A stretch of DNA of 38,618 bases from a virus. The notes beneath the pieces are model-generated. The model searched no databases and was not told where the DNA came from. It was given only the letters and a program-made list of their open reading frames with translations. This document shows, piece by piece, positions 879 through 34,842 of the stretch; the stretch's first letter is position 1, and each line of letters begins with the position of its first letter. The stretch lies in the UHGV virus genome UHGV-0392077; one strand, 5' to 3'. The translations under genes and the position numbers were made by a program.

Positions 879-933
879 TGTATTCATTTCTATTCACTCT
901 ACACCATATTTTTCGGCGGTACAGGTGACGGTA

Positions 934-2244: not shown

Positions 2245-2439
2245 TTAATTATTCTGCTGATTTTCTTCCATCTCGGCTTCTGCTGCCAGTGATTCAATTT
2301 TGTCTGCGAATATTGCTGACAGCGTTGCAAATTCAGCATCAGTGACAGCGGGAATCGGAACAAACCTGATCCCGCTGTGTGCAAGCATGTTTGCAGTTTC
2401 AAGGCATTTCCTTAAATCTGCTGGTGATGCCCTGTTCAT
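2245..2439 (-). CDS. hypothetical small protein (64 aa)
   Basis: ATG at 2439 overlaps the stop of the upstream methyltransferase gene (ATGA overlap), suggesting translational coupling; convergent with int with a 3-nt gap. No recognisable motif. Confidence 0.4.
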   Translation of the reverse strand: MNRASPADLRKCLETANMLAHSGIRFVPIPAVTDAEFATLSAIFADKIESLAAEAEMEENQQNN

Positions 2440-5991: not shown

Positions 5992-6006
5992 TTACCGTTG
6001 AGGTAA
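5992..6006. promoter_or_regulatory. operator-like palindrome TTACC-gttga-GGTAA
   Basis: Perfect half-sites; between the leftward promoter candidate and the first leftward ORF. Confidence 0.5.
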
Positions 6007-6034
6007 TGATTATGCGTATCTGGTTTGATGTCAA
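6007..6034 (-). promoter_or_regulatory. candidate leftward early promoter (PL-like)
   Basis: Minus strand reads TTGACA (6034..6029) followed by CATAAT-like -10 (6014..6009); spacer is only about 14-16 nt, so exact hexamers are uncertain. Flanked by two operator palindromes. Confidence 0.35.
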
Positions 6035-6053
6035 TAGATATGAGTTAAAAAAA

Positions 6054-6068
6054 TTACCCATAAGGTAA
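6054..6068. promoter_or_regulatory. operator-like palindrome ATTACC-cataa-GGTAAT
   Basis: Perfect 17-bp palindrome (6053-6069). Confidence 0.5.
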
Positions 6069-6079
6069 TCGCATAGGCA

Positions 6080-6105
6080 ATAAAAAAGCCGCCATGAGGC
6101 GGCTT
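6080..6105 (-). terminator. rho-independent terminator of the repressor gene
   Basis: Minus strand: AGCCGCC-TCAT-GGCGGCT followed by TTTTTTATT. Confidence 0.6.
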
Positions 6106-6125
6106 ACTTACTGAAAAATATGATT

Positions 6126-6710
6126 TTATTGTTTGCTTTTTTCGTTCTGGTTGATGACAAATTCAATGTAACTTTCGATCTTTGCCTTCTCTGTTTCAGG
6201 TAACAATGCGTAGCGCGAGCGATCATAGTTGATAGTCGCAGGGTCGTGCGGGTGAATCAGTAATTCATAGCCGTGACGCCCGAATGCGGATGCAACATTC
6301 TCCAGGGTGGAAATGGAAACGCTGACTTCATTGTTTAACAGGCGGCTGATTGTCACCTGGGCGACGCCGGATGCGCGGTGAAGTTTTCCCTGTGTTGAAA
6401 GGTCGCGGCTTTCGCTCATCCAGCGTTCCAGGTTGTGAGCCGCCAGCTGACCAATGTCGCTTGGGCCGACAGGCTGAAACCCCTCCTGAGAAAGCGAGCG
6501 ATCGATATCAAGCCAGTTACGGGGTTTATTGGCGGCAGCTTCAATTTTTCGCGCAACCTGGTCGCCGATAACCTTCTTGCCAAGAGCCCAGCGGTTTACC
6601 AGATTTGCCTGAGTTCCAAGTTTTTCTGCCATCCGCGTCTGAACACCATTGAATTCACGGTCGATCAAGTCGTTGAGATTTTGCCTGCGGACGTCCTGGA
6701 TACTTTTCAT
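6126..6710 (-). CDS. phage repressor (CI-like), two HTH-like segments, no S24 peptidase domain
   Basis: 194 aa; HTH-like segments GVQTRMAEKLGTQANLVNRWALGKK and GVAQVTISRLLNNE; no Ser/Lys autoprotease signature. Divergent from the Cro-like gene across an operator cluster. Confidence 0.65.
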   Translation of the reverse strand: MKSIQDVRRQNLNDLIDREFNGVQTRMAEKLGTQANLVNRWALGKKVIGDQVARKIEAAANKPRNWLDIDRSLSQEGFQPVGPSDIGQLAAHNLERWMSESRDLSTQGKLHRASGVAQVTISRLLNNEVSVSISTLENVASAFGRHGYELLIHPHDPATINYDRSRYALLPETEKAKIESYIEFVINQNEKSKQ

Positions 6711-6765
6711 TTTCTGGAAAATCGCCTCATATATGAATCAGTAGATGATTCAATTTAAAGCAATA

Positions 6766-6780
6766 TTACCCAACAGGTAA
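6766..6780. promoter_or_regulatory. operator-like palindrome TTACC-caaca-GGTAA (site 1 of the divergent-promoter cluster)
   Basis: Perfect half-sites in the repressor/cro intergenic region. Confidence 0.55.
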
Positions 6781-6782
6781 AT

Positions 6783-6797
6783 GCACCTCATAGGTAA
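6783..6797. promoter_or_regulatory. operator-like variant GCACC-tcata-GGTAA (site 2)
   Basis: Right half-site perfect, left half degenerate; a near-identical GCACC-tcaaa-GGTAA occurs at 7151-7165. Confidence 0.4.
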
Positions 6798-6803
6798 CTA
6801 TCC

Positions 6804-6835
6804 TTGATTTTTGTTACCTTATGGGTGAATATTTA
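6804..6835 (+). promoter_or_regulatory. candidate rightward early promoter (PR-like)
   Basis: TTGATT at 6804-6809, then an A/T-rich -10 candidate around 6828-6835; operator site 3 lies in the spacer. Confidence 0.35.
6814..6828. promoter_or_regulatory. operator-like palindrome TTACC-ttatg-GGTGA (site 3)
   Basis: Same TTACCTTAnnGGTGAAT variant as the site at 9115-9129. Confidence 0.5.
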
Positions 6836-6864
6836 TTATCTGAAATAAATATCAGGCAATAGCT

Positions 6865-7095
6865 ATGAGCGATAACGGACATTTCGATTTCAAAAAGCAC
6901 TGGCTTGCACTTACTCCGGATGAGCGTGAAGCCTTCGCACAGGAAGCCGGAACGACGAGTCACTATATCCAGACTCACTTAACAGGTAAGCGCAAAATGC
7001 CAGGTAAAGTATTGATGAATGGGCTTTTTAAAGCCTGTAAAACAAGACAATGGCTGCGCTCAAAAGCAGAACTGGCATACTTCTTCTACTCATGA
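6865..7095 (+). CDS. Cro-like HTH DNA-binding protein (putative)
   Basis: 76 aa, first gene of the rightward operon, divergent from the repressor; segment EREAFAQEAGTTSHYIQTHLTGKR is HTH-like. Confidence 0.5.
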   Translation: MSDNGHFDFKKHWLALTPDEREAFAQEAGTTSHYIQTHLTGKRKMPGKVLMNGLFKACKTRQWLRSKAELAYFFYS

Positions 7096-7116
7096 TATCC
7101 AGCTACAACCCTCTGT

Positions 7117-7142
7117 AGACCGCCACCTGGCGGTCTTTTCAT
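7117..7142 (+). terminator. rho-independent terminator after the Cro-like gene (tR1-like)
   Basis: AGACCGCC-ACCT-GGCGGTCT followed by TTTTC. Confidence 0.5.
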
Positions 7143-7150
7143 ATCTATTC

Positions 7151-7165
7151 GCACCTCAAAGGTAA
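7151..7165. promoter_or_regulatory. operator-like variant GCACC-tcaaa-GGTAA
   Basis: Near-identical to the variant at 6783-6797; immediately downstream of the terminator. Confidence 0.35.
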
Positions 7166-9052: not shown

Positions 9053-9067
9053 TTACCTATCAGGTAA
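9053..9067. promoter_or_regulatory. operator-like palindrome ATTACC-tatca-GGTAAT
   Basis: Perfect 17-bp palindrome in the 117-bp gap after the P-like gene. Confidence 0.5.
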
Positions 9068-9114
9068 TAAAATATTCTAAACTCTATTGATTTCGTGTCT
9101 TATGTGGTTTTTAA

Positions 9115-9129
9115 TTACCTTAGAGGTGA
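9115..9129. promoter_or_regulatory. operator-like palindrome TTACC-ttaga-GGTGA
   Basis: Overlaps the SD region 4 nt upstream of ATG 9133. Confidence 0.45.
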
Positions 9130-12987: not shown

Positions 12988-13200
12988 ATGCCAAAAATAC
13001 GCTACGACCTTGAAGATATGAGAGATAACTCAGCAAATTTTCCGAAAGAGGTTAAATTTCTCATGCATAAGTATGGTTGCGCCAGGAGGGATATAGTTAT
13101 CGACAGTCAGCACCCTTGCGGCGAGGATGTAATTTTCATTCGCGGTAAATGGGAAGGGTATCTTGACGAGAGTTTTTACGATGAATTTGATGGACTTTGA
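12988..13200 (+). CDS. hypothetical small protein (70 aa)
   Basis: ATG 12988 with AAGGTG upstream; could alternatively be part of a late-operon leader. Confidence 0.35.
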   Translation: MPKIRYDLEDMRDNSANFPKEVKFLMHKYGCARRDIVIDSQHPCGEDVIFIRGKWEGYLDESFYDEFDGL

Positions 13201-13205
13201 ATACT

Positions 13206-13231
13206 GCCGCCAACTATGGCGGCTTTATTTT
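13206..13231 (+). terminator. rho-independent terminator immediately upstream of the terminase genes
   Basis: GCCGCC-AACTAT-GGCGGC followed by TTTATTTT. Confidence 0.6.
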
Positions 13232-13242
13232 GCATGGTACTA

Positions 13243-13257
13243 TTACCACAACGGTAA
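13243..13257. promoter_or_regulatory. operator-like palindrome TTACC-acaac-GGTAA (plus imperfect TTACC-acggt-GGTTA at 13261-13275)
   Basis: Between the terminator and the terminase small-subunit start. Confidence 0.5.
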
Positions 13258-13274
13258 CAATTACCACGGTGGTT

Positions 13275-13871
13275 ATGATGCCTGCTGAACCTAAAACCTA
13301 TAAACGCAAATCAACGCAATTTAAGCCGCTCACAGCAATGCAGGAGGCTTATTGCCAGTCATACATCAAAACGCCTGAAAACCAGACTCAGGCAGCGATT
13401 AACGCAGGATTCTCCCCAAATACAGCGGCAGTTAAAGCCAGTGTCATGATGCGCGATGAACGCATTCAAAAACGGATTGCCGAGCTGATGGAAGAGCGCA
13501 ACAAACGAATGCGCGTCAGTGCCGATTACGTTCTCATGCGCCTGGTGGAGATCGACCAGATGGACGTGATTGATATCCTCAACGACGATGGGAGCCTTAA
13601 GCCAATCCGCGAGTGGCCGAAAATCTGGCGCACTACGCTTAGTGGCTTTGATCTGTCATCGACCATCATGAACATGAACGAGGATTCGATAGAGACAATC
13701 CTCAAAAAAATTAAATGGCCTGACAAGGTGAAGAACCTCGAACTGATTGGTAAGCACGTCGACGTCAACGCATTCAAAGAACGCCTGGATGTTAATGTGA
13801 ATGTGACAATTGCTGATCGCATAGCGGCAGCCAGGAAGCGACTCAAAGAACGTCAGGATGGTAATCAGTGA
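13275..13871 (+). CDS. terS: terminase small subunit
   Basis: LTAMQEAYCQSYIKTPENQTQAAINAGFSPNTAAVKASVMMRDERIQKRIAELMEER matches the HTH-containing small-terminase pattern (Terminase_2/P27-like, as recalled). Start moved to ATG 13275 because the ORF-track N-terminus translates the terminator and operator. Confidence 0.7.
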   Translation: MMPAEPKTYKRKSTQFKPLTAMQEAYCQSYIKTPENQTQAAINAGFSPNTAAVKASVMMRDERIQKRIAELMEERNKRMRVSADYVLMRLVEIDQMDVIDILNDDGSLKPIREWPKIWRTTLSGFDLSSTIMNMNEDSIETILKKIKWPDKVKNLELIGKHVDVNAFKERLDVNVNVTIADRIAAARKRLKERQDGNQ

Positions 13872-15343
13872 CAGATACAGCGTTATCTCCTGAAGAGCAG
13901 TTGATCGAGGATATTGCAGGGTTCACTCACGATCCGCTTGGCTATGCCCTCTATGCGTTCCCGTGGGGGGAAGAGGGGACTGAACTGGCACATGCCACCG
14001 GCCCACGTCAGTGGCAGGCTGATGCGTTCCGAGAGATACGTGATCACCTGCAGAATCCAGAGACGCGCTATCAGCCGCTTATGCTGGCACGCGCTTCTGG
14101 TCACGGTATTGGTAAATCCGCATTCATCTCAATGCTGATCAACTGGGGCATGTCCACTTGCGAGGATTGTAAGGTCGTGGTGACCGCCAACACCGACAAC
14201 CAGCTACGAACGAAGACCTGGCCGGAAATTATCAAGTGGTCAAACCTTGCTATCACGAAAGACTGGTTTACCTGTACCGCTACCGCGATGTACAGCAATG
14301 ACCCTGGGCACGACAAGCGGTGGCGAGCTGACGCAATCCCCTGGTCTGAGCACAACACTGAGGCATTCGCCGGACTACACAACGAGCGCAAACGCATCAT
14401 CGTGGTATTCGATGAAGCGTCGAATATTGCCGATCTTGTGTGGGAGGTAGCAGAGGGTGCGTTGACGGACGAAGACACCGAAATCATCTGGGTGGCGTTC
14501 GGGAACCCGACGCGTAACACCGGGCGTTTCCGTGAATGTTTCCGCAAGTACAAACACCGCTGGAAGTGTGCGCAGATTGACAGCCGGACGGTGGAAGGCA
14601 CTAACAAACAGCAGTTGCAGAAATGGGTTGATGACTACGGGGAAGACAGCGACTTCGTTAAAATCCGTGTGCGCGGCATATTCCCGGATGCATCTGAATT
14701 GCAGTTTATCCCTACCGGTCTTACTGATGAGGCAATGAAACGGGTGGTAACCGCTGCGCAGGTTGCACATGCTCCGGTGATAATCGGCGTTGACCCGGCA
14801 TACTCCGGTGTTGATGACGCGGTGATATACCTGCGGCAGGGGCTGCACAGTAAGGTGCTGTGGACTGGTAACAAGACCACCGACGATCTGATTATGGCGA
14901 AGCGCATCGCTGACTTTGAAGACCAGTATCAGGCTGACGCGGTATTCATCGACTTCGGTTACGGAACCGGTTTGAAGTCAATCGGTGATGGCTGGGGACG
15001 TACATGGCAACTTGTTCCGTTCGGTGGCGCGTCTACTGACCCGCAGATGCTCAACAAGCGTGGGGAGATGTTCAACTCATGTAAGACATGGCTGAGGCTG
15101 GGCGGCATGCTGGATGACCAGGAAACTGCAGACGACCTGTCGGCGGCAGAGTACAAAGTTCGAGTGGACGGTAAAATCGTTATCGAACCGAAGGAAGATA
15201 TCAAAGAGCGACTTGGGCGTTCACCTGGTAAAGGCGATGCGCTACTGCTGACGTTTGCGTTCCCTGTGTCAAAGCGTCTGCTAATTCCCGGGCAGCAGAA
15301 CCAGCAAGGCAAGGCCATCACAGATTACGATCCCTATGCTTAA
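13868..15343 (+). CDS. terL: terminase large subunit
   Basis: 491 aa; GTG 13868 overlaps the terS stop (GTGA). Walker-A-like ASGHGIGKSA and VVFDEASNI (Walker-B-like); size and position typical. Confidence 0.8.
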   Translation: MTDTALSPEEQLIEDIAGFTHDPLGYALYAFPWGEEGTELAHATGPRQWQADAFREIRDHLQNPETRYQPLMLARASGHGIGKSAFISMLINWGMSTCEDCKVVVTANTDNQLRTKTWPEIIKWSNLAITKDWFTCTATAMYSNDPGHDKRWRADAIPWSEHNTEAFAGLHNERKRIIVVFDEASNIADLVWEVAEGALTDEDTEIIWVAFGNPTRNTGRFRECFRKYKHRWKCAQIDSRTVEGTNKQQLQKWVDDYGEDSDFVKIRVRGIFPDASELQFIPTGLTDEAMKRVVTAAQVAHAPVIIGVDPAYSGVDDAVIYLRQGLHSKVLWTGNKTTDDLIMAKRIADFEDQYQADAVFIDFGYGTGLKSIGDGWGRTWQLVPFGGASTDPQMLNKRGEMFNSCKTWLRLGGMLDDQETADDLSAAEYKVRVDGKIVIEPKEDIKERLGRSPGKGDALLLTFAFPVSKRLLIPGQQNQQGKAITDYDPYA

Positions 15344-15370
15344 TCCGTTGGAGGGGATAATGCTGCTGAT

Positions 15371-15420
15371 ATCCTCTGATGAGGATAAAACAAAGCCAGC
15401 TCATCGGCTGGCTGTTTGTG
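15371..15420. terminator. bidirectional terminator region between terL (+) and the minus-strand moron gene
   Basis: Two adjacent hairpins (ATCCTC-TGAT-GAGGAT; AGCCAGC-TCATCG-GCTGGCT) with T-rich runs on both strands. Confidence 0.45.
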
Positions 15421-15429
15421 ACATGTCAC
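15418..15429. repeat. perfect 12-bp palindrome GTGACATGTCAC (copy 2 of 3)
   Basis: Exact string, followed by GGTGTTATT; abuts the terminator hairpin and lies 5 nt beyond the stop of gene 15434..15808. Confidence 0.9.
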
Positions 15430-15433
15430 GGTG

Positions 15434-15808
15434 TTATTGCTCGCTTAACTTCTGCTTCAGCAAGTAACCTTCAAGTATCCAGATTTTGTTTACAGCATTC
15501 TGCCGGGCAATCTTCCGACCAATTTCCGCATCAAAGTTTTCCGGGCTTGCACAGGCGCTCTCTCCGGTGACGGTGAAGCCATTCTTCAGTACCAATACGC
15601 AGAAAGTGAGAAGGTGCAGAGCATCAGGGGTGGCTTCAACATAAGGCTCCGGATTATAAATAAGGTCATCTTCTTTAGCCTGGTGGTCACCCTGCGCAGC
15701 AGTGAAAAAATGCTCACTGCAAATGAGGCCTTCAATTTTCTCAGGTGTTACACGCGGTGCCGTTTTGCCTTTCTCAACGATTTCTTTTTCGATTTGCTGG
15801 TCGTTCAT
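15434..15808 (-). CDS. hypothetical protein (124 aa), moron gene antisense to the late operon
   Basis: ATG 15808 preceded by AAGGTGAG; transcribed opposite to the flanking terminase and portal genes and bracketed by hairpins. No confidently recognised motif. Confidence 0.55.
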   Translation of the reverse strand: MNDQQIEKEIVEKGKTAPRVTPEKIEGLICSEHFFTAAQGDHQAKEDDLIYNPEPYVEATPDALHLLTFCVLVLKNGFTVTGESACASPENFDAEIGRKIARQNAVNKIWILEGYLLKQKLSEQ

Positions 15809-15819
15809 AATCTCACCTT

Positions 15820-15843
15820 AAAAAAATGCCCGGCGAACCGGGC
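15820..15843 (-). terminator. hairpin plus T-run immediately upstream of the moron gene (possible attenuator)
   Basis: Minus strand GCCCGG-TTCG-CCGGGC followed by ATTTTTTT, only about 12 nt before the gene's ATG. Confidence 0.35.
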
Positions 15844-15919
15844 GAACTGGAAGCAATGAGTTATGCCTTCCGTGGCTGTACTGGTTTACAGCATGAAGTC
15901 ATCGCAATGGCGTCCTGCT

Positions 15920-15963
15920 GTAAAAAGGGCGGTGATAGTCCTTCAAGGGAAACCATCACCGCC
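15920..15963 (-). terminator. candidate terminator downstream of the tRNA
   Basis: 9-bp stem GGCGGTGAT/ATCACCGCC with an 18-nt loop, followed on the minus strand by CTTTTTA. The loop is large, so confidence is low. Confidence 0.3.
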
Positions 15964-16006
15964 AAGCACCTGGAACTTCTGGCATCACGGTCCTTAGGCG
16001 TGATTC

Positions 16007-16083
16007 TGGCGTGGCATGCAGGATTCGAACCTGCGACCAACCGCTTAGAAGGCGGTTGCTCTGTCCAGCTGAGCTAATGCCAC
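16007..16083 (-). tRNA. tRNA-Arg(UCU): tRNA-Arg (anticodon UCU), argU-like, CCA encoded
   Basis: Minus strand folds by hand into a cloverleaf: acceptor GTGGCAT/ATGCCAC, D-arm GCTC...GAGC, anticodon stem ACCGC/GCGGT with loop CTTCTAA (anticodon TCT), T-arm GCAGG-TTCGAAT-CCTGC, discriminator G plus CCA. Resembles E. coli argU as recalled. Confidence 0.8.
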
Positions 16084-16405
16084 AACGCTGAGAGCACTTA
16101 GCCTGTTAAGGCACCACACTTTGTCGCGGCTCCATAAATGCTCTCATCGTTGTACCCTCGTCTCTTCCGAGGTGTCACACCGAATCGCCGGGATGGTGAA
16201 TCCCCGTGCGCGGAATAAAACCGCTCGACTTGCACATTCCGGCTACCTGGTTCGTTTGCCCGAGCAAGGGAGGGTGCCCCTTAAACGTATCCAGACCGCT
16301 ATCGGCGCATGTGCCATACGCCGTACTGCTCAAAATAAAAGCTCACTCCACCTGTTCAATTTAACGACAAGCCAGTCAGGTTAGTAACCGGAATGAACTC
16401 TTTGG

Positions 16406-16420
16406 TTACCTGAAAGGTAA
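16406..16420. promoter_or_regulatory. operator-like palindrome TTACC-tgaaa-GGTAA
   Basis: In the non-coding region upstream of the portal operon; the flanking GGTAATAATTTG is repeated again at about 16478. Confidence 0.5.
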
Positions 16421-16510
16421 TAATTTGTGCGTTAAATGTCAACTATCTAAAATAAATAAATCATATGTGGTTAAATTGGTAATAATTTGATTGCGTACGG
16501 AGTCATTGAT

Positions 16511-16717
16511 ATGTGCATGGGTAGCTCACCATCAGTGCCTGCAACACCAGAAGTTCAGGCAGCACCACAGGAGCAGGATGCCGCCGTTGTTGATGCCCGC
16601 GATGAAGAAACTCGTCGCCGTCGCGCTGCTGCTGGTCGTAGTTCTACGCTGCTTACCGGTTCTCAGGGCGACACATCAACCGCTAATACCAGCGGTAAAA
16701 CGCTGCTTGGTCAGTAA
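16511..16717 (+). CDS. small hypothetical protein (68 aa), Ala/Gln/Thr-rich
   Basis: ATG 16511 preceded by CGGAGTCATTGA, the same 12-mer that precedes the portal ATG; low-complexity sequence, so coding status is uncertain. Confidence 0.3.
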   Translation: MCMGSSPSVPATPEVQAAPQEQDAAVVDARDEETRRRRAAAGRSSTLLTGSQGDTSTANTSGKTLLGQ

Positions 16718-16731
16718 CCGGAGTCATTGAA

Positions 16732-18411
16732 ATGGCGGAAACAACTAAAGAGCGATTGAACAAACAGTTCGCACAACTTGAAAGCGAGCGTCAGTCGTTC
16801 GAGCCGCACTGGCGCGAGTTGAGTGATTACATCAACCCACGTGGTTCCCGCTTTCTGACTTCTGAGGTCAACCGTAACGATCGACGCAATACACGCATTA
16901 TTGATTCGACCGGGACTATGGCGGCGCGCACTCTCGCCAGCGGCATGATGTCAGGCATCACAAGCCCCGCGCGTCCGTGGTTTCGCCTGGCTACGCCAGA
17001 TCCTGAAATGATGGATTATGGCCCTGTTAAGTTGTGGCTTGAGGCGGTGCAGAACCGCATGAACGATATGTTCAATAAGTCGAATCTCTATCAGTCGCTG
17101 CCGCAGTTATACGGAAGCCTCGGCACATACAGCACTGGTGCAATGGCGGTACTGGAGGATGACGATGACATCATTCGCACAATGCCATTCCCGATAGGCA
17201 GTTACTACCTGGCTAACTCACCTCGTGGCAGTGTGGACACCTGTTTTCGCAAGTTCTCTATGACTGTTCGTCAGCTTGTTCAGGAGTTCGGGCTAAATAA
17301 CGTCAGCGAATCCGTAAAAAGCATGTGGGAAAGCGGCACCTACGAGAAGTGGATTGAAGTGATGCATTCGGTTTACCCGAACATTGACCGCGATACATCG
17401 AAGCTGGATAGCAAGAACAAGCCATTCAAATCGGTTTATTACGAGGTTGGTGGCGATAACGACAAGTTGTTGCGTGAGTCCGGATTCGATGAGTTTCCAA
17501 TTATGGCTCCGCGCTGGGAAGTTAACGGCGAAGATGTTTATGGATCATCATGCCCGGGTATGCTGGCGCTTGGACCTGTTAAGGCATTGCAGCTTCTCCA
17601 GAAGCGCAAGTCGCAGTTGATTGATAAAGCCACCAATCCGCCGATGGTTGCTCCGACTTCCCTCAAGAATCAGCGCGCCTCCCTTCTTCCTGGCGACATC
17701 ACGTATATCGATCAGATTACTGGTCAGGATGGCTTCAGGCCTGCTTATCTGGTTAACCCCAGTACAGCAGATTTGGTGGCAGACATTCAGGACACTCGTC
17801 AAATCATTAACAGCGCCTACTTTGTCGATCTGTTCATGATGTTGCAGAACATCAATACCCGCTCGATGCCTGTTGAAGCAGTGATCGAAATGAAAGAAGA
17901 AAAACTTCTGATGTTGGGGCCGGTTCTGGAGCGTCTGAACGACGAATGTCTTAATCCTCTCATTGACCGCGCTTTCTCGATGATGGTGCGTAAAAACATG
18001 CTGCCGCCACCGCCTGACGCGATGGAAGGTATGCCCCTGAAGGTCGAATACATTTCCGTCATGGCTCAGGCGCAGAAGTCTATCGGCCTGTCCAGTCTGG
18101 CGTCTACGGTCAACTTCATTGGTCAACTTGCGCAAGCGAAACCAGAAGCTCTCGACAAACTCAACGTTGATCAGGCGATCGATGCATTCGCTGATATGTC
18201 CGGAGTGTCTCCAACCGTCATTGTTCCGCAGGAACAGGTTGAGCAGGCTCGCCAGCAACGGGCACAGCAACAACAGCAGCAACAAATGATGGCGATGGGG
18301 ATGGCGGCGGCACAGGGTGCCAAGACGCTAAGCGAAGCTAAAACTTCGGATCCGAGTGTTTTGTCAGCTATGGCGAATGCAGTTAGTGGTCAGGGTGGGC
18401 AATCACAATGA
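16732..18411 (+). CDS. portal protein
   Basis: 559 aa directly downstream of the terminase module; N-terminus ...FEPHWRELSDYINPRGSRF...PARPWFRL; the C-terminus is Gln/Ala-rich. Size and position typical of podovirus portal proteins. Confidence 0.8.
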   Translation: MAETTKERLNKQFAQLESERQSFEPHWRELSDYINPRGSRFLTSEVNRNDRRNTRIIDSTGTMAARTLASGMMSGITSPARPWFRLATPDPEMMDYGPVKLWLEAVQNRMNDMFNKSNLYQSLPQLYGSLGTYSTGAMAVLEDDDDIIRTMPFPIGSYYLANSPRGSVDTCFRKFSMTVRQLVQEFGLNNVSESVKSMWESGTYEKWIEVMHSVYPNIDRDTSKLDSKNKPFKSVYYEVGGDNDKLLRESGFDEFPIMAPRWEVNGEDVYGSSCPGMLALGPVKALQLLQKRKSQLIDKATNPPMVAPTSLKNQRASLLPGDITYIDQITGQDGFRPAYLVNPSTADLVADIQDTRQIINSAYFVDLFMMLQNINTRSMPVEAVIEMKEEKLLMLGPVLERLNDECLNPLIDRAFSMMVRKNMLPPPPDAMEGMPLKVEYISVMAQAQKSIGLSSLASTVNFIGQLAQAKPEALDKLNVDQAIDAFADMSGVSPTVIVPQEQVEQARQQRAQQQQQQQMMAMGMAAAQGAKTLSEAKTSDPSVLSAMANAVSGQGGQSQ

Positions 18412-22217: not shown

Positions 22218-24688
22218 TGGCTATCAGTTGGATCCAGCCCAGCTTTGCCGGTGGTGAGATTGGACCGTCGTTGTACGGTCGTATCGACATGGCGAAGTAC
22301 CAGGTGGCATTGCGCAAGTGCGATAACTTTATCGTGCGGCAGTATGGCGGTGTTGAGAATCGACCGGGTACGCGTTTTGTCGGTGCTGCCAAATACCCAA
22401 ATCGGAAATGCCGCCTGATCCCGTTCCAGTTCTCGACGGTTCAGACCTATGCTCTGGAGTTCGGACACCAGTACATGCGCGTTATCAAAGATGGTGCGTT
22501 GGTGCTGAACAGCAGCAATGTTATTTATGAAATTGCCACACCATATACTGAAGCCGATCTGTTCCAAATTAAATTCACGCAAAGCGCCGACGTGCTTACG
22601 CTGGTTCACCCGGCATACCCGCCGAAAGAGTTGCGTCGCTATGCGCATGACAACTGGCAACTGATTGATGTGGTAACGAAGAACGGGCCATTTGAAGATA
22701 TCAATATTGACGAGTCAGTGACGGTTTATGCCAGCGCCAGCACCGGGACAATTACGTTAACGGCAAGCGCCTCTATTTTTGGCGCGGAGCAGGTAGGCAA
22801 ATTGTTCTATCTGGAACAGCCTGCAGTGGATTCTGTGCCGGTATGGGAAACCAGTAAGAGTACGTCGATTGGCGATATTCGCCGTGCAGACAGTAACTAC
22901 TATCGCGCCGTTACAGCAGGCAAAACAGGCACTTTGCGCCCTTCGCATACAGAAGGCACATCATGGGATGGCTGGGGCGGATCCGGTGATGATGATACTG
23001 GCATTGAGTGGGAGTATCTGCACAGTGGTTTTGGCATTGCCCGTATAACTGCTGTAAATGGCACTACTGCAACTGCTGAGGTGATTTCCTATATCCCTTC
23101 GCAGGTCGTTGGCGAGGATAATGCCAGCTATAAATGGGCTAAATATGCCTGGAACAGTGTTAATGGTTATCCTGGCACTGTTGTTTATTATCAACAACGT
23201 CTTTACTTCGCCGCATCGACTGCGTTCCCTCAGACTATCTGGGCCAGCCGTACTGGGGATTATAAGGATTTTGGCAAAAGCAATCCTACGCAGGATGACG
23301 ACAGAATTATCTACACCTATGCCGGGCGTCAGGTTAATGAGATCCGCCACCTGATTGATGTTGGTTCGCTGGTGGCGCTGACTTCCGGAGGTGAGTACGT
23401 CATCACCGGCGACCAGAACAAAGTGTTAACCCCATCATCATTTGCATTCAGCTCTCAGGGATCAAATGGCTCAAGCAACGTCCCACCAATTGCCGTAGCG
23501 AATATTGCTCTGTTCGTCCAGGAGAAAGGCAGTGTTGTCCGTGATCTGGCCTACTCATTCGATGTTGACGGCTATCAGGGGAACGACCTGACCATCCTTG
23601 CCAATCATCTTTTTCAGAAGCACAGCATTGTTGACTGGTGCTTCTCTATTGTCCCTTACTCCAGCGCCTTCTGCATTCGTGATGACGGTAAATTACTGGT
23701 GATGACCTATTTGCGTGATCAGCAGGTTTTTGCATGGGCACCACAATCCAGTACCGGAAAATATGAAAGCACATGCAGTATCAGCGAAGGCAATGAAGAT
23801 GCGGTGTATTTCGTCGTTAACCGAACCGTTAACGGGCAAACAGTGAGATACATCGAGCGGCTGTCCAGCCGTTTATTTACCAGCGATGAAGATGCTTTCT
23901 TTGTTGATTCTGGCCTTAGCTATGATGGAAGAAATACGTCTGACAGAACGATGACCATCACTGGTGGTTCTGGTGAATGGGATTACCGTGCGGAATATAC
24001 AATCAGTGTTTCTGGTGGTGCGTACTTCACCAGTAGTGATGTCGGCGCGCAACTACAGTTCCCTTATACCGGAACTGATCCTGATACTGGCGATGAAGTG
24101 TCAAAAGAATTACGTTGCGACATTATTTCTGTAACCAGCAATACCGCTGTAGTGGTTCGTGCTAACAGGAACGTACCGCCATCCCTCAGGAATGCGGCCA
24201 CCACGAACTGGCAGATGGCGCGCCGGACATTTGGAGGCCTGTCTCATCTTGAAGGCCAGACCGTAAACATTCTCTCTGATGCGAACGTGGAACCACAGAA
24301 AGTAGTTTCCGGAGGTGCCGTCACGCTGGAATCTCCGGGGGCTGTAGTGCACATCGGCCTGCCAATAACTGCTGAATTCGAAACACTGGATATCAACATT
24401 AACGGACAGGAAACGCTGCTGGACAAAAAACAGGTGATCCCCTCCGTTACTCTGGTTGTGAATGCCAGTCGCGGCATCTGGGCGACTACGCCCGGCGGTA
24501 AATGGTACGAATATCCACAGCGTGAATTCGAGTTCTACGATGATCCTGTTGATGATGCTACCGGAAAAGTAGAAGTGAAACTGGACAGTAACTGGGGCAA
24601 AAACGGACGTGTAAGAATCCGTCAGCTTGACCCGTTGCCGCTGTCTGTTCTTGCCGTTATTCCTCGCCTTACTGTTGGGGGGTTCTGA
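22217..24688 (+). CDS. large tail structural protein (823 aa)
   Basis: Long ORF, translationally coupled to its upstream neighbour; the call is from position and size in a podovirus-type tail module. Confidence 0.5.
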   Translation: MAISWIQPSFAGGEIGPSLYGRIDMAKYQVALRKCDNFIVRQYGGVENRPGTRFVGAAKYPNRKCRLIPFQFSTVQTYALEFGHQYMRVIKDGALVLNSSNVIYEIATPYTEADLFQIKFTQSADVLTLVHPAYPPKELRRYAHDNWQLIDVVTKNGPFEDINIDESVTVYASASTGTITLTASASIFGAEQVGKLFYLEQPAVDSVPVWETSKSTSIGDIRRADSNYYRAVTAGKTGTLRPSHTEGTSWDGWGGSGDDDTGIEWEYLHSGFGIARITAVNGTTATAEVISYIPSQVVGEDNASYKWAKYAWNSVNGYPGTVVYYQQRLYFAASTAFPQTIWASRTGDYKDFGKSNPTQDDDRIIYTYAGRQVNEIRHLIDVGSLVALTSGGEYVITGDQNKVLTPSSFAFSSQGSNGSSNVPPIAVANIALFVQEKGSVVRDLAYSFDVDGYQGNDLTILANHLFQKHSIVDWCFSIVPYSSAFCIRDDGKLLVMTYLRDQQVFAWAPQSSTGKYESTCSISEGNEDAVYFVVNRTVNGQTVRYIERLSSRLFTSDEDAFFVDSGLSYDGRNTSDRTMTITGGSGEWDYRAEYTISVSGGAYFTSSDVGAQLQFPYTGTDPDTGDEVSKELRCDIISVTSNTAVVVRANRNVPPSLRNAATTNWQMARRTFGGLSHLEGQTVNILSDANVEPQKVVSGGAVTLESPGAVVHIGLPITAEFETLDININGQETLLDKKQVIPSVTLVVNASRGIWATTPGGKWYEYPQREFEFYDDPVDDATGKVEVKLDSNWGKNGRVRIRQLDPLPLSVLAVIPRLTVGGF

Positions 24689-25152
24689 TGATCGATGTTC
24701 GAATTATTCCCGCTACCGAAGAGCATCTTCAGATGATTTTGCCGGATGTTCGTCAGGCTGATATTGACGAACTGTATGCGGTATCGCTGATGACTACCGA
24801 AGATGCGCTGCGTGTTGGTCTGCGCACTGCGACTATGGCCTGGTCAGGGTTTGCGAACAGAGAACTGGTAACCATGTTTGGTGTATCACCGGCGTCAATG
24901 ATTGGTGGAAATGGTACGCCCTGGCTGGTCGGAACCAGCCATATTGAAAAATATCAGAAGACATTTCTTCGCCACTGCCGCCCTGTATTGCAGCAGATGC
25001 TGGCAGTTTATCCGCGCCTGGAAAACTACGTCGACGAGCGAAACCATGTTGCCAAAGCATGGCTGCACTGGCTTGGATTCAGGCTTGAAGAAGCCGCGCC
25101 TTATGGCGCTCTTGGTCTTAATTTCCACAGATTTCACATGGAGAGAAAATAA
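24688..25152 (+). CDS. hypothetical virion protein
   Basis: 154 aa, start overlaps the upstream stop. Confidence 0.4.
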   Translation: MIDVRIIPATEEHLQMILPDVRQADIDELYAVSLMTTEDALRVGLRTATMAWSGFANRELVTMFGVSPASMIGGNGTPWLVGTSHIEKYQKTFLRHCRPVLQQMLAVYPRLENYVDERNHVAKAWLHWLGFRLEEAAPYGALGLNFHRFHMERK

Positions 25153-25691
25153 TGTGTAACCCAGCCATCGCTTTGGTTGCCGTCACAGTGGCATCCACAG
25201 CCGCGTCAATGTACAGCCAGAGCAAGCAGGCAAAATACCAGTCAGCCATAGCTGATCGGAATGCTGAAATTGCTGAAGCTCAGGCACAGGATTCAATCAA
25301 TCGTGGGAATATTGAAGCGGATCAGCGTCGTCGTGAAATGCGTCAACGCTCAGGCACTGCGGCGGCCACTATGGGGGCTACCGGTGCGGAATTAAGTAGC
25401 GGAACAGCTCTTGACGTTTTTGCGGATAATGCTCAGTTCGGCACTCTTGATGCGTTAACGACAGTGAATAATGCTCAGCGTGAGGCATATGGGTATCAGG
25501 TTCAGGGAATGAATGCTCAGGCACAGGGGGCTGCTGCTCAGTCGGCTGCTAAATCATCGATGACCAGCACTTTGTTAACGGCACCACTAAAAGCATACGG
25601 TGCATACCAGATGGGCGGCGGAACGTGGAGCCCGTTCTCTCAGAAAGCTGCGCCGATTTCTGCTGCTGTTGGCACTCCAACAGGTCGATAA
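25152..25691 (+). CDS. hypothetical virion/internal protein (Ala/Gln-rich)
   Basis: 179 aa, start overlaps the upstream stop (ATGA). Confidence 0.4.
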   Translation: MCNPAIALVAVTVASTAASMYSQSKQAKYQSAIADRNAEIAEAQAQDSINRGNIEADQRRREMRQRSGTAAATMGATGAELSSGTALDVFADNAQFGTLDALTTVNNAQREAYGYQVQGMNAQAQGAAAQSAAKSSMTSTLLTAPLKAYGAYQMGGGTWSPFSQKAAPISAAVGTPTGR

Positions 25692-25703
25692 GGGGATAAT
25701 AAG

Positions 25704-28217
25704 ATGCCAGTTGTACCAACAACATCGGGCCGCCAGGTTCAAAGCAGAGGGATTTCGACGCAGGGATTCTCATCGTTTCAGACACCAAATGTCGGTGATG
25801 TACTTGGCGATGTTGCAGAGCAATATGCAGGTATTATTGCGCAGGCAAAACAGCGTGCGAATGTTGCTATGGCTCAGGATGCTTCTCTTAGCTTAAGCCA
25901 GATAAGCAGCGATCTGCTGAATAACCCTGAAACAGGTTTGCTTAACCTGAAAGGGAAAAATGCTATTGGAAAAGGTCAGGAGTATACGCAGCAGTTTGAT
26001 GCCCAGGTCGAGCAACTGGCTATGTCGCTGCCGGATGAACAGGCCCGTAATGCTTTCATGCAGCAGGCACAGCAGCAGCGCATTCAGTTCACTACGCAGG
26101 CCGGGCGGCACGAGATAGGGCAAATTAATGCCTACGAAGAAGGTCAGTTTCAGGCGACGCTGCTGAATAATGGTAAAAATGCCGCAGCATTGTATGGCGA
26201 CAATGCCGCATACGTATTGGCTAATAAGCAAACTTTCCAGCAAATTGAGGATTACGGCATTGCGCATGGCTGGAGCGACGAGCAAATCCAGGCCAAGAAA
26301 ATCGAGTTTAAAGAGAAGGTTGCTGATGCCGCATTGTCCCAGTGGTCGGCAAACAATGCGACCGCATTCATCCAAAGTAATGGCGAGTTAAGTGATACTG
26401 CTGCTGGAGCTCGCCGTGCTGTAGCAGATAGTGACTCTTCCGAGCGTGCCCGTGGCATACGCAACAATAACCCAGGAAATCTCGAATACAGCAAAACTAA
26501 TCCGTGGGTAGGCCAGACCGGTGATGATGGTCGATTTGCTAAATTCGAAACACCTGAACACGGGATTCGTGCATTAGGGCGAAACCTGATGTCGTATCAG
26601 AGGCAGGGTATTGATACCGTCAGCGAGATAATTAATCGCTGGGCACCGCCTACTGATAAAAATGATACTATGTCGTATATCAAAGCAGTGTGCGAACAAC
26701 TTGGCGTTTCTGCTGATGATCCTCTCGATGCATCTAATCCTGATACCCTGAAGGCGCTTTGTGCAGCCATTATCCATCATGAGAACGGTAACCAGCCATA
26801 CAGTGATCAGCAGTTAACTGCTGGTGTCAGTGCAGCACTTGGTTTATCAACAATTCCAACCAACACCAAACGCTATACCGGTAATGCAGCATTCGATGCG
26901 GCATCTCCTGAGGCGCAGGCAAGTTTTATGCGACAGGCGGATCAACTGCGTCGGCAGCAGCAGGCTGAATATAAAACGATGATTGACAGCCAGGTTCGCG
27001 ATGCGACGGCTGCGTATATGCGTGGCGTTGAATTTCCTAACCCACCTGGTGAGGATGATTTTATTGCAGCTTATGGAGTCAGAGAAGGAAACCTGCGATA
27101 TACCGAGTTTAAGAATACGCAGATCGCCGGACAGTATATAGGCTCTTTCCGCAACATGCCGACAAGCAGCATTACAGCATATGTTGAGCAATTACGCCCG
27201 GATACTGGTGATACAGGGGAGGGGTATGCGGCACGCGCAGATCTTTATGACAACGTTGTTTCGGCTGCAAATCAGGTGATAAAGCAGCGGCAGTCGGATC
27301 CTGTGCAGTTCTCTCTTGCCTCCGGACTGGCAAAGCCTATCGACATGAGCAATAAGGATAACTTTGGACAGAGCGTTGCCTTGCGTGCCGCTCAGGTCAG
27401 TGACCTTGCTAAGTCATATGGCACTCCACTGACGTTCTTTTCCAAAGACGAGGCCAATCAGATCGGTGTTTTCTTTCGTGATGCTCCAGTTTCCCAACAG
27501 GCAGCATATCTCGATACCATCAGGCAGAGTACTGGTGGTGGGCAGGTGTATATGTCAGCACTACAGCAGATCAGTGCCAACGCGCCATCTGCTGCCGTTG
27601 CCGGGATACTGATGGATAAGCCTGGTGGTATTTTGGCAGAAAAAAACTGGTTTAATCCGGATGTTTCCGTGTCTCCTGAAACCGCTGCGCAGACAATTCT
27701 TGCTGGCGCGGCGGCTCGTAAAGGTACTGATGATGCGAAAGGTATTCCGATGCCTAAAGATGCTGATCTTCGCCTTGAGTTTTCTGACATGGTGAAGGAT
27801 GCATTTGCTGGTGACGCTCAGGGAGCATCAATGGCATACGAGATCGCAAAGGATTATTACGCTGGTGTGATGGCGAAAAAAGGCGTGGTATCAGGCGAAA
27901 TTGACAATGATGTCTGGAAACAGGCTGTTAACGTAGCTACAGGTGGCGTGCATGACTATAACGGAATGGGGAATGTCCTTTTGCCGTGGGGAATGTCTGC
28001 AGAGCAATTCGATAAGCAGGTTAATCAGGCTTGGAATGAACAAGTTGTCGGCACCGGGATAAAAACACCGCCTGGTCAGTATGGTTTGCAAAGTTACGGC
28101 GATAGTCAGTACCTGGTGAAACTTGGTACTGGTTATCTGCTGAAAGATGATGGTTCTCCTGTTGTTCTTGATCTGACACAGAAGCGTCAGAGATTCTCCG
28201 GAGATATTCCGCAATGA
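25704..28217 (+). CDS. internal virion / ejection protein (837 aa) with an internal globular insert
   Basis: Largely Ala/Gln-rich with a distinct segment (about 26450-26800) RARGIRNNNPGNLEYS...HHENGNQPY. Role inferred from position. Confidence 0.5.
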   Translation: MPVVPTTSGRQVQSRGISTQGFSSFQTPNVGDVLGDVAEQYAGIIAQAKQRANVAMAQDASLSLSQISSDLLNNPETGLLNLKGKNAIGKGQEYTQQFDAQVEQLAMSLPDEQARNAFMQQAQQQRIQFTTQAGRHEIGQINAYEEGQFQATLLNNGKNAAALYGDNAAYVLANKQTFQQIEDYGIAHGWSDEQIQAKKIEFKEKVADAALSQWSANNATAFIQSNGELSDTAAGARRAVADSDSSERARGIRNNNPGNLEYSKTNPWVGQTGDDGRFAKFETPEHGIRALGRNLMSYQRQGIDTVSEIINRWAPPTDKNDTMSYIKAVCEQLGVSADDPLDASNPDTLKALCAAIIHHENGNQPYSDQQLTAGVSAALGLSTIPTNTKRYTGNAAFDAASPEAQASFMRQADQLRRQQQAEYKTMIDSQVRDATAAYMRGVEFPNPPGEDDFIAAYGVREGNLRYTEFKNTQIAGQYIGSFRNMPTSSITAYVEQLRPDTGDTGEGYAARADLYDNVVSAANQVIKQRQSDPVQFSLASGLAKPIDMSNKDNFGQSVALRAAQVSDLAKSYGTPLTFFSKDEANQIGVFFRDAPVSQQAAYLDTIRQSTGGGQVYMSALQQISANAPSAAVAGILMDKPGGILAEKNWFNPDVSVSPETAAQTILAGAAARKGTDDAKGIPMPKDADLRLEFSDMVKDAFAGDAQGASMAYEIAKDYYAGVMAKKGVVSGEIDNDVWKQAVNVATGGVHDYNGMGNVLLPWGMSAEQFDKQVNQAWNEQVVGTGIKTPPGQYGLQSYGDSQYLVKLGTGYLLKDDGSPVVLDLTQKRQRFSGDIPQ

Positions 28218-30016
28218 GTTACTTTGGCCTTAATCCAGTAAACCAGAATCAGCAACTTGACGAAGCAGCATCAAATCCAGCGGGCTTTAACAGCGATGTT
28301 GGTTTTTTCGACAATGCTGCAGGAGCGGCATTGTCTGGTTTGTACTCCGGGCTGGTGGCAAAGCCAGATCAGTTGCTATGGGCAGGGATGGATAAAATCG
28401 TATCCCCGATTGCTCAGTTTGTTAACGAAAACACCTCGTTCAATGACACTTCAGTTTCATACATTGCTGAGCAGAGAAAACTAGCAGAGCAGCAGGTTAA
28501 GCAGCTGACGCCTGATGCCGCGACAACCGGAACCGCCGGGCAGGTTCTTTATGGGTTGTTCGATATGGGCGGGCAGGCTGTTGTCGGTACAACGCTCGGT
28601 GGTCCTGTCGGAGGTGCAGCGGCGGTAACTTCGCTACAGGGTTTTTCTGAGTTTGAACGGCTGACAGCACAGGGTGTTGATTTCAGGACGGCGCAGGAAG
28701 CGGGATTAGTGCAGGGCATTACTGCTGGTGCCGGAACACTGATCCCTATGAGCCTCGGGTTACGTGCTGGTGGTGCGCTGGCGGAAGGTGTGGCGGCTCA
28801 GCTTGCGCGGACGGGTGAGAGTTCAGTGCGACGCGCCGCAGCAACAGCAGTACGTGCAATGCCAGATATTGCCTATGCCGCAGGTACAAATATTGCGTTC
28901 GGTATGGCACAGCGTGGGCTTACTGCAAAAACGCTTCGTGATGGTGGCTATAGCGAAATGGCTAACCAGTATGATGTGTTGGATCGACAGGCAATTGCTA
29001 TTGATGCTGTTCTTGGGGTGGCGTTTGGTGGTGTCGGCAGATTTATTAACTCTCGCGGCGAGTCTACAAACGCACCAAATTTTTCACCAGTTGATATCGA
29101 TGCTGCACTGGCGGCGAATGCCGCTCATCATGCTGAAATTGATATTGCGCCCGGCGTGCCGATCAACGTGCTTTCGCGCAATTCTCACATTCAGGCTCTG
29201 CGAAAAGCTATGTCTGATGTTAGCCAGGGGAGACCTGTAGACGTTGCCAGCATTGTTGAGTCTGCATCTTTCAGTGAAATTCCTGGGCGCAAGAGTCTGC
29301 TGTCTCAGGCAGTTAATGAGGCTCTGTCATCTGTAGATGATGGAGTAACGGCGCGCGCTATAGAAAATCGGTTGCTTGAAGAACAGGCCGCGCAGCTTTT
29401 GCCGCGTGGAGATAGACAGGTTTACCAGTCTGAAATCGCTAATAGCCAACGAATTATTGAAAATCTCACTGAACAGCGTGCACAAATTCTTGCAGAAGAG
29501 CCAACCGGTAGCGGTAAAGCTTTGTCTCGTACTCGATCAGATAAACAGGCCAGACTTCGCGATATTGACCAACGAATCCGGCAGGCACAAGAACGCCTGG
29601 AATTTTCTCGTAACGCGTTGGCACCGCATGAGCCTGGCGGTCAGTTTTTTGAAGCTCGAGCAGAACTGGCTCGGAGACAGCAGGCAGAAAGTGAACTTAA
29701 TGCTCAGGCTGTTTCATTCTATAAAACAGCAGAGGTCAGGACGCCAGGCGAAGTGGCTCCTTTTGAGCCTGATAAAATATTGCAACAGGCAGAACAAAAA
29801 ATGATGGCGGATCAGGCAGGAGATATTGATCTGCGCATAGCTGAAGACTCGCTGCTTGAATCACCTGACATGATAATCACCGTGCTGGATGATGATGGTA
29901 ATCCACAATCGCGCAGCGCGCGTGAAGTACTGGATGAAGCGAACAGGGAAAGTGAGCAGGCAATACAGGATTCCAGCCTGTTTGATGTCGCTGTGGCGTG
30001 TTTCTTGAGAGGTTAA
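28214..30016 (+). CDS. internal virion / ejection protein (600 aa)
   Basis: ATG overlaps the upstream stop; Gly/Ala-rich N-terminal half with hydrophobic stretches. Confidence 0.5.
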   Translation: MSYFGLNPVNQNQQLDEAASNPAGFNSDVGFFDNAAGAALSGLYSGLVAKPDQLLWAGMDKIVSPIAQFVNENTSFNDTSVSYIAEQRKLAEQQVKQLTPDAATTGTAGQVLYGLFDMGGQAVVGTTLGGPVGGAAAVTSLQGFSEFERLTAQGVDFRTAQEAGLVQGITAGAGTLIPMSLGLRAGGALAEGVAAQLARTGESSVRRAAATAVRAMPDIAYAAGTNIAFGMAQRGLTAKTLRDGGYSEMANQYDVLDRQAIAIDAVLGVAFGGVGRFINSRGESTNAPNFSPVDIDAALAANAAHHAEIDIAPGVPINVLSRNSHIQALRKAMSDVSQGRPVDVASIVESASFSEIPGRKSLLSQAVNEALSSVDDGVTARAIENRLLEEQAAQLLPRGDRQVYQSEIANSQRIIENLTEQRAQILAEEPTGSGKALSRTRSDKQARLRDIDQRIRQAQERLEFSRNALAPHEPGGQFFEARAELARRQQAESELNAQAVSFYKTAEVRTPGEVAPFEPDKILQQAEQKMMADQAGDIDLRIAEDSLLESPDMIITVLDDDGNPQSRSAREVLDEANRESEQAIQDSSLFDVAVACFLRG

Positions 30017-30021
30017 ATTAA

Positions 30022-34824: not shown

Positions 34825-34842
34825 GGTGGTTATCTCCACTTA

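Follow-up and report, generated by a model that had tools for sequence, protein, structure and literature searches.

A conserved pseudoknotted leader RNA of temperate phages, possibly a cis-acting antitermination element

Introduction

C4 RNA of phages P1 and P7 and CI RNA of P4 are leader-derived antisense immunity factors of about 70-80 nt, which are matured by RNase P and have phage-specific targets. The N/nut system of lambda pairs N, whose gene lies in the operon concerned and whose product has an arginine-rich motif, with boxA and a boxB hairpin; the loop of boxB is 5 nt, GNRA-like, and in nutL has the sequence GAAGA. The put RNA of phage HK022 brings about factor-independent antitermination through the zinc-binding domain of beta'. 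It needs no phage protein and itself binds RNA polymerase (PMC9378689). Here we describe a leftward unit of about 1.1 kb in UHGV virus genome UHGV-0392077, a stretch of 38,618 nucleotides (hereafter the window, meaning this whole stretch) that is an epsilon15/phiV10-like temperate podophage, a Uetakevirus. The unit carries a structured leader RNA that shares features with each of these systems. Like HK022 put, it is a cis-encoded RNA which lies just after an early phage promoter and before terminators, and which has a lambdoid carrier without N. Like the lambda nut site, it occupies the pL leader, and like C4 and CI RNA it is a phage RNA in the leader of a repressor-controlled operon. We present its fold, distribution and genomic settings, and weigh the possibility that it acts in cis on transcription termination.

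Results

The GC-rich stretch at 16084-16400 supplies the core of a conserved family of leader RNAs with a pseudoknot. The core structured RNA itself ('module A', 16156-16323, minus strand) is about 168 nt long and matched its covariance model with 141.8 bits (E 1e-43); the model found this single copy in the window and no second. The GC content of the core is 0.60, compared with 0.489 for the window as a whole. Its parts are, in order, a hairpin H1, a helix P2 whose variable apex bears CCUUG, the invariant 18-mer GUAGCCGGAAUGUGCAAG, a variable P3, P4 and P5. The loop of P4 (CACC) pairs with a downstream GGUG to form a pseudoknot, and the hairpin loop of P5 is GAAGAGA. The modelled structure contains 29 pairs in 6 helices (H1, P2 outer, P2 inner, P4, P5 and the pseudoknot).

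Covariation was assessed in an alignment (A2) of 41 representatives, mutually less than 94% identical, which were picked from 103 unique cores. The 29 modelled pairs were paired in 92.3% of cells, compared with 81.9% in shuffles (0/500 as high), and both partners had changed in 16 pairs (114 cells). H1 showed direct covariation, from G-C to A-U at columns 5-17, and one pair of the pseudoknot helix switched jointly from C-G to A-U. In a control in which partners were slid by 1-3 columns, pairing fell to 31-48%. An unbiased mutual-information scan recovered the pairs of the structure, its top pairs all being Watson-Crick consistent. Since G-U pairs were frequent, the fold fits the minus strand only. 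RNAalifold also returned a long-range GCACAU/AUGUGC pairing, both sides of which are invariant and which competes with the covarying H1; H1 was preferred, and the long-range pairing is possibly a tertiary contact. The long single-stranded stretches were nearly invariant across phages with different repressors, operators and hosts. The CCUUG of the P2 apex was present in 43-50 of 63 unique sequences and is complementary to an invariant GCAAG. A YCCCUUGA-type motif is common to the P2 apex (16270-16285) and to the loop of the downstream terminator T1 (15935-15950).

Open reading frames (ORFs) within 16084-16400 were short and unconserved only. In a coding test on 41 diverged homologues no frame was open in more than 17 of them, and element lengths were spread evenly over the remainders modulo 3. 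An earlier note on this DNA, made from the sequence alone, had seen no convincing ORF here, and the stretch is indeed non-coding. That note had offered it as the seat of either the tRNA promoter or a non-coding RNA; the second of these holds, whereas the promoter lies upstream of the stretch. At the gathering scores of Rfam 15 nothing overlapped 16084-16400. At E<=10, chance-level matches to eukaryotic families (E>=4) reached its 5' end and none fell in the core at 16156-16323; the corresponding leader of the lambdoid phage mEp460 matched no Rfam family. Literature searches on put-like elements, P1 ban transcripts, the Uetakevirus tRNA-Arg, Stx2c phage antitermination and the sequence itself gave no description of the element. 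By Rfam and the searchable literature, our sole checks, the leader RNA family appears to be undescribed, and a prior description elsewhere is possible.

The element was present in 1843 of 5426 complete E. coli genomes, about one third, and among the matches listed almost none had an annotation beneath it (in RefSeq the element is unannotated). Using 16084-16440 as a blastn query, we found it in 92 phage records. In lambdoid phages (cdtI, mEp460, Stx2c and Stx2a phages) identity was about 82% along 240 nt, and in P1, P7, D6, SJ46 and RCS47 about 81% along 165 nt; it was 71-73% in Uetakeviruses of Salmonella, Klebsiella and Enterobacter and in a phage that is filed under Stenotrophomonas. Exact matching of the 18-mer gave at least 23 true genomic loci in Enterobacterales and at least 120 viral contigs and, with the covariance model, added Kosakonia, Citrobacter, Klebsiella, Erwinia and others to the hosts. 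Four further 18-mer hits, in metagenome-assembled genomes of Bacteroides, Dysgonamonadaceae and Oscillospiraceae and in Azonexus, had no homology beyond the 18-mer and were dropped. The covariance model identified full copies in mEp390, SopranoGao and 733R5, and the 3' half of the element in KpF5. The full copy in Klebsiella phage SopranoGao, a 61-kb Lastavirus, lies at 765-922 (minus strand, 124 bits) between the lysis genes and the terminal gene, a context which departs from the early-promoter position seen elsewhere. The epsilon15 copy (2455-2534) is truncated and scored 33.5 bits: the 3' two-thirds of the element appear to be gone, along with the hairpin that follows the element (hairpin H), the tRNA and T1 in its 5' half. 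This loss appears to have arisen by deletion between the YCCCUUGA-type repeats of the P2 apex and the T1 loop.

We surveyed the genomic contexts of 153 loci, each oriented on the element. The Uetakevirus slot accounted for 52 of them. A further 47 were lambdoid, and here the element lies on the same strand as an S24-type cI gene and upstream of left-operon genes, after the cI terminator and a strong, operator-flanked pL-like promoter. A different helix-turn-helix (HTH) repressor lay upstream in 17 loci, with the repressor terminator and a strong, operator-flanked promoter intervening. Another 17 loci were P1-like, with the element between trnI and ban, and in P1 itself the element is internal to the ban operon. 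The start of ban is about 100 nt downstream of the element and, in 13 of the 17, trnI is about 15 nt upstream of it. The remaining 20 loci were in other contexts. The carriers are several unrelated temperate-phage lineages, and outside P1 the constant feature is that the element is usually the first transcribed segment from a repressor-controlled early (pL-like) promoter. In public records, hypothetical ORFs cover the tRNA and the structured leader, or run antisense to them, in phiV10 (2672-2923), Tyrion (2350-2511) and mEp460 (2245-2388 and 2430-2798; mEp460_036/037 are annotated over the element). These ORFs are probably spurious.

A leftward sigma70-type promoter is predicted at 16414-16442 (minus strand), where we read a -35 TTGACA (16442-16437), a 17-nt spacer and a -10 TACCTT (16419-16414). 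Diverged Uetakevirus-type relatives (survey loci L004, L007, L008 and L020) keep the geometry TTGAC(A/C/T)-N17-TACC(T/C)T. A generic promoter scan of 15300-16560 called zero promoter-like sites, and passed over the predicted promoter because its -10 matches at only 3/6 positions. The palindrome that the earlier note had called operator-like is a true operator, TTACCTGAAAGGTAA at 16406-16420, which overlaps the -10 and is one of nine perfect TTACC-N5-GGTAA copies in the window. Allowing up to 2 mismatches, the window held 43 matches, compared with 10.5 expected, and 0 of 100 shuffles attained 43. Copies lie on both sides of a Cro/C1-type HTH gene (6126-6710) and around a Bro-N antirepressor gene (34114-34839, minus strand), which identifies the palindrome as a phage operator; the HTH gene is a likely candidate for the repressor. 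Clusters of the motif occupy 5992-7165, with the HTH gene between, and 9053-9129, ahead of 9133. Further perfect copies lie inside the terminase small-subunit gene at 13243, and at 34014, 35094 and 35474 near the Bro-N gene. Because the operator overlaps the -10 of the sole credible promoter, the simplest expectation is that the leftward unit would be repressed in lysogens and would fire early on infection or induction. Expression from the prophage, as the earlier note had it, would be unlikely under an operator that also flanks the HTH and Bro-N genes.

Between the promoter and the core lies a 5' leader segment (16324-16405, minus strand) with the motif GUCGUUAAAU...GGUGGAGUG, partly conserved in alignments of Uetakevirus-type relatives. 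On the other side of the core, hairpin H (ACAACGAUGAGAGCA...UGCUCUCAGCGUUG; 16084-16153, minus strand), whose tip is variable, runs right up to the first base of the tRNA. Its stem covaries across loci (GAGAGCA/UGCUCUC, AAGAGCA/UGCUCUU and GAGCGCA/UGCGCUC). The tip holds the same insertion of about 95 nt in SPN1S, a Salmonella Uetakevirus, and in Stx2a_1447, a lambdoid Stx phage; the insertion carries two T-arm-like motifs, GGUUCAAUUCC and GUUCGAUUC, and its occurrence in both indicates that modules are exchanged between phage lineages. Between the tRNA and T1 lies a small conserved hairpin, AUCACGCCUAAGGACCGUGAU (15984-16004, minus strand), which recurs in Uetakevirus-type and other leaders.

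A terminator scan placed T1 just after the tRNA (15920-15963, minus strand; GGCGGUGAUGG...CUAUCACCGCC then CUUUUUACA, hairpin from 15963 to 15928). The second terminator, T2 (15821-15843, minus strand; GCCCGGUUCGCCGGGC then AUUUUUUU, hairpin from 15843 to 15828 followed by U7), is very strong. Its end is separated by about 5 nt from the Shine-Dalgarno sequence of the cargo gene and by about 12 nt from the start codon, ATG. T2 is conserved ahead of different cargo genes in L007, L008 and L018. The third, T3 (15394-15413, minus strand; hairpin from 15413 to 15394), closes the leftward unit and points towards the end of the large terminase gene; the phiV10 record annotates a terminator at this position, on the opposite strand. 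The region held 4 terminator-like sites, compared with 1.2 expected. Across loci we used a crude detector, and rescanned with long loops since a loop limit of <=8 nt had missed the lambdoid T1. A terminator-like GGCGG...CCGCCCUUUUUAC module, homologous to T1, lies about 280 nt past the 18-mer, ahead of the first ORF, in 42/45 Uetakevirus-type and 42/45 lambdoid loci. From promoter to ATG, the window and mEp460 alike have about 600 nt of untranslated, G-rich RNA.

In the slot held by tRNA-Arg in the window, mEp460 has a conserved leader module, GUUGUGGUGA-AUGCGCAGGCUGAUGCGC...GCCGGAGAUCAGCACCGG-UCACCACAAC (2369-2503, minus strand). The module was also found in L004, L016, L029, L032 and L086, lying upstream of the element in L016. 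Its predicted fold is a four-way junction that resembles a cloverleaf and is closed by a stem of 9 bp, and it had no Rfam match. Some leaders (L010, L013, L070, L105 and L125) contain 6-8 RNA-sense copies, and 0 antisense copies, of the 8-mer GGAAAGAC, mostly as a CCGG-GAAAGA-CCGG hairpin. These repeats span from about -130 to +1200 around the element, whose P5 loop GGAAGAGAC is a variant of them; the hairpin may be a repeated protein-binding site.

The tRNA-Arg(UCU) at 16007-16083 (minus strand, 77 nt, CCA encoded) is borne out by both ARAGORN and the Rfam covariance model (RF00005, 71.7 bits against a gathering score of 29, E 6.6e-14). No second or degraded tRNA scored in 15300-16750, even at E<=10, and the degraded copies that had been suspected in 16084-16400 were found by neither ARAGORN nor the Rfam tRNA model at that threshold. 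Arginine tRNAs have A20 and C35 among their identity elements. As read from the sequence, the phage tRNA has the anticodon tct at position 35, with C35 and U36 present, and a D-loop ...GGAC... with A20. It is identical at 62 of 77 positions to what we take to be the sequence of E. coli argU, from which its acceptor and anticodon stems differ by compensatory changes. It is a canonical tRNA-Arg(UCU), which lies inside a structured early leader and not in a tRNA array. The same tRNA lies directly downstream of the element in 29 of the 52 Uetakevirus-type loci, and is lacking in many others, so it is optional. Related phage records already annotate it; the phiV10 record is without it.

The earlier note had supposed that this tRNA serves AGA codons of late genes. 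AGA is indeed used there, as 9% of Arg codons (5.2 per 1000 codons), but use is higher in early genes (12%; 8.2 per 1000), and AGA is concentrated in tail and early genes and reaches zero in the head genes and in the 124-aa cargo gene. In E. coli, AGA makes up about 2 per 1000 codons. Codon supply by the tRNA is plausible yet modest, and it may equally be a spare against tRNA-targeting defences.

The cargo gene (15434-15808, minus strand) encodes a 124-aa Acb4-family protein, a predicted cyclic-dinucleotide sponge directed against the cyclic-oligonucleotide-based antiphage signalling system (CBASS). It matched PF13876 over profile positions 1-82 of 82 (115.9 bits against a gathering score of 27, E 1.1e-33). 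The only PDB match was weak (9e4w chain A, SPO1 Acb4; E 0.0045) and covered the conserved core, residues 56-108. Acb4 sponges are tetramers for 3'3'-cGAMP or related signals. Members of PF13876 have been shown to be such sponges, which sequester cyclic dinucleotides and so block CBASS; all eight homologues tested bound 3'3'-cGAMP (PMC11722364). Unlike SPO1 Acb4, the 124-aa protein, here known from its sequence, carries an N-terminal extension of about 50 aa. The gene had been taken as defence or lysogenic-conversion cargo; family membership points instead to a probable role in counter-defence. The slot is taken in a Klebsiella phage by a gene for a Tad2-like (PF11195) protein, to which the 124-aa protein had no detectable homology, and in other relatives by small ORFs that are unrelated. 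Both the tRNA and the Acb4-family gene simply add members to families already known.

The region studied shares 95-98% identity with phiV10, TL-2011b and the O157 typing phages 9 and 10, and the 357 nt of 16084-16440 are 100% identical to an E. coli O4:H5 chromosome. On the plus strand, the terminase small-subunit gene (13197-13871) is followed by the putative terminase large-subunit gene (13868-15343), so assigned from the phiV10 and epsilon15 annotation: its 491-aa product had no Pfam match at E<=0.01, and the PacB-like annotation of relatives is the sole basis. A gp3-like 68-aa ORF (16511-16717, plus strand) separates the leftward region from the portal gene (16732-18411, plus strand). The tRNA, the 124-aa ORF and the terminator hairpins occupy the minus strand between the large terminase and the gp3-like and portal genes, and all parts that the earlier note had assigned to an antisense unit (the ORF with a hairpin on either side, the tRNA, the non-coding stretch and the palindrome) are present. 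Taken together, the 1.1-kb insert would be an early, repressor-controlled counter-defence cassette read leftward, running from promoter and operator through a structured leader of about 320 nt (5' segment, core RNA from 16323 to 16156, hairpin H) to tRNA-Arg(UCU), T1, T2, the Acb4-family gene and T3.

Elsewhere in the window, a C4 antisense RNA (66 bits) and an IsrK-family RNA (63.5 bits) lie at 34873-35057 (minus strand), just upstream of the Bro-N antirepressor gene. Taken with the operators, this Uetakevirus region resembles an immI-like module for antirepressor control of the P1/P7 kind.

Discussion

We propose, with a probability of roughly 40%, that the element represents a new class of cis-acting antitermination leader RNA, similar to HK022 put in action and unrelated to it in sequence and fold. 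The leader RNA would act in cis on the polymerase from which it emerges, either by itself or with help from a conserved host factor, and would carry this enzyme through the intrinsic terminators and the untranslated RNA between promoter and first ORF. We rank an effect in cis on elongation or termination first because pL transcription in the lambdoid carriers must pass a terminator that precedes any encodable protein, which is the problem faced by put in HK022. In mEp460 a Q-like late regulator is present and no N-like gene is annotated; its first pL ORF had no Pfam or NCBIfam matches. We considered the product of that ORF, mEp460_035, as an N analogue and rejected it, for the protein is acidic and lacks an arginine-rich motif. 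Both T1 and T2 of the window lie ahead of the sponge gene, with no promoter-like site called in 15300-16560. The near-invariance of the single strands across heteroimmune phages suggests a conserved host partner, for which RNA polymerase is the obvious candidate.

Several observations weigh against antitermination, which we infer from layout alone. Each phage has a single copy of the element, with no copy downstream of pR, unlike HK022 with its putL and putR. In the Uetakevirus slot, processive antitermination would impair T3 as well, so that antisense RNA would run on into the terminase genes, which seems harmful. The P1 element has no directly following terminator and no nearby promoter, and our crude detector found a terminator in only about half of the loci with a different HTH repressor or in other contexts. 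The truncation in epsilon15 implies that the element is dispensable there. Finally, the flanking tRNAs or tRNA-like module would suit a free, trans-acting RNA equally well.

Such an RNA is the best of the alternatives, though a doubtful one. In this case a stable early RNA would be cut from the leader and would bind, as sponge, decoy or host-takeover RNA, either a conserved host protein or a component of a defence system, with processing by RNase P at the 5' end of the downstream tRNA or tRNA-like module, or in P1 by tRNA 3' processing upstream. The tRNA immediately downstream in over half of the Uetakevirus-type loci (29/52), a tRNA about 15 nt upstream in 13/17 P1-like and 5 further unclassed loci, and the cloverleaf-like module with its 9-bp closing stem that fills the slot where the tRNA is missing would all be consistent with this. 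So would single strands that hardly vary despite different repressors and hosts and so suggest a conserved host partner, neighbouring cargo of counter-defence type (Acb4 family here, Tad2-like in the Klebsiella phage), the patchy distribution with a truncated copy in epsilon15, and the GGAAAGAC hairpins, which at 6-8 sense and 0 antisense copies in some leaders resemble protein-sponge RNAs. However, the orientation of the element and its site after early promoters and before terminators are what a cis-element needs and are superfluous for a free RNA, and in some loci (such as L098) an ORF follows directly without a processing signal. A bolder form of these ideas is somewhat less probable again: an early RNA released by tRNA enzymes that captures a host factor (RNA polymerase, a CsrA-like RNA-binding protein or a defence component), or a sensor of an infection signal that switches on counter-defence genes.

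We consider it rather unlikely that the element is a regulated attenuator, that is, a riboswitch-like aptamer or a site for a host or phage protein which gates termination at T1 in response to a signal. The compact pseudoknotted core has conserved junction nucleotides of the kind found in aptamers, and a terminator lies downstream in most loci. The complementarity of the P2 apex CCUUG to GCAAG, and its resemblance to the YCCCUUGA loops of T1, hint at a link between element and terminator. In known transcriptional riboswitches, however, the 3' part of the aptamer overlaps a terminator or antiterminator. Here the first terminator of the window lies more than 120 nt downstream, past hairpin H and the tRNA, and across loci the distance is 120-280 nt with tRNA or other modules between. 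The downstream genes have no common function (the sponge gene, ban, DUF2303 and unknowns), and no ligand suggests itself.

Much less probable is the account of the earlier note, in which the unit is a prophage-expressed moron, the GC-rich stretch is only a tRNA promoter or decayed tRNAs, and the tRNA serves late AGA codons. The unit does have its own promoter and terminators, as predicted from sequence and as expected of a moron or conversion cassette, and is antisense to the late genes; AGA use in both late and early genes exceeds that of E. coli. Against this, the -10 is covered in part by the operator, and 16084-16400 neither contains the promoter, which is upstream of it, nor has any tRNA-like match. 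The covarying stretch also occurs in phages without a nearby tRNA (45/47 lambdoid loci), the protein belongs to a counter-defence family, and the head genes and the sponge gene are free of AGA. We dismiss both a small protein encoded in the stretch and a site that functions as DNA (an origin or a recombination site, for example), since despite the ORFs annotated over the element (mEp460_036/037 and one in Tyrion) and the few short ORFs in the window, no frame is conserved, indels are not multiples of 3, and the helices vary in a compensatory manner with G-U pairs that fit one strand only.

A covarying, pseudoknotted RNA of about 170 nt has been left without annotation in about one third of complete E. 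coli genomes, although E. coli prophages and P1 are heavily studied. If the element does prove to be a second class of polymerase-modifying RNA, structurally unrelated to the first, RNA-only antitermination would be no peculiarity of HK022, left-operon expression in N-less (SfV-like) lambdoid phages would be accounted for, and a compact new part for transcription control would become available. The cassette also marks an early slot with swappable contents (Acb4-like and Tad2-like genes, a tRNA), which could be mined for anti-defence genes.

In comparison with the described systems, the element differs from HK022 put, which spans about 70 nt in two stem-loops, in having a core of about 168 nt with five helices and a pseudoknot. 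Our covariance model had no match in positions 24000-31000 of the HK022 record, a 7-kb segment in which put sites are unannotated and outside which they may lie. Direct comparison with put gave only a chance word match of 13-14 nt, in apparent coding sequence, and was rejected as homology. The element falls outside the put family in size, fold and sequence. Its 7-nt P5 loop, GAAGAGA, recalls the boxB loop of lambda, but in contrast to the N/nut system mEp460 encodes no N-like arginine-rich protein, a terminator stands before the first ORF, and the RNA is far larger. The boxA-like UGCUCUC lies within a covarying helix and is not single-stranded; with no N and no free boxA, the element is unlikely to be a nut site. 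It showed no similarity to the models of the C4/isrK clan, and the true C4 RNA of the window lies elsewhere, at 34873-34956. Unlike the C4 and CI RNAs, the element is nearly invariant across heteroimmune phages.

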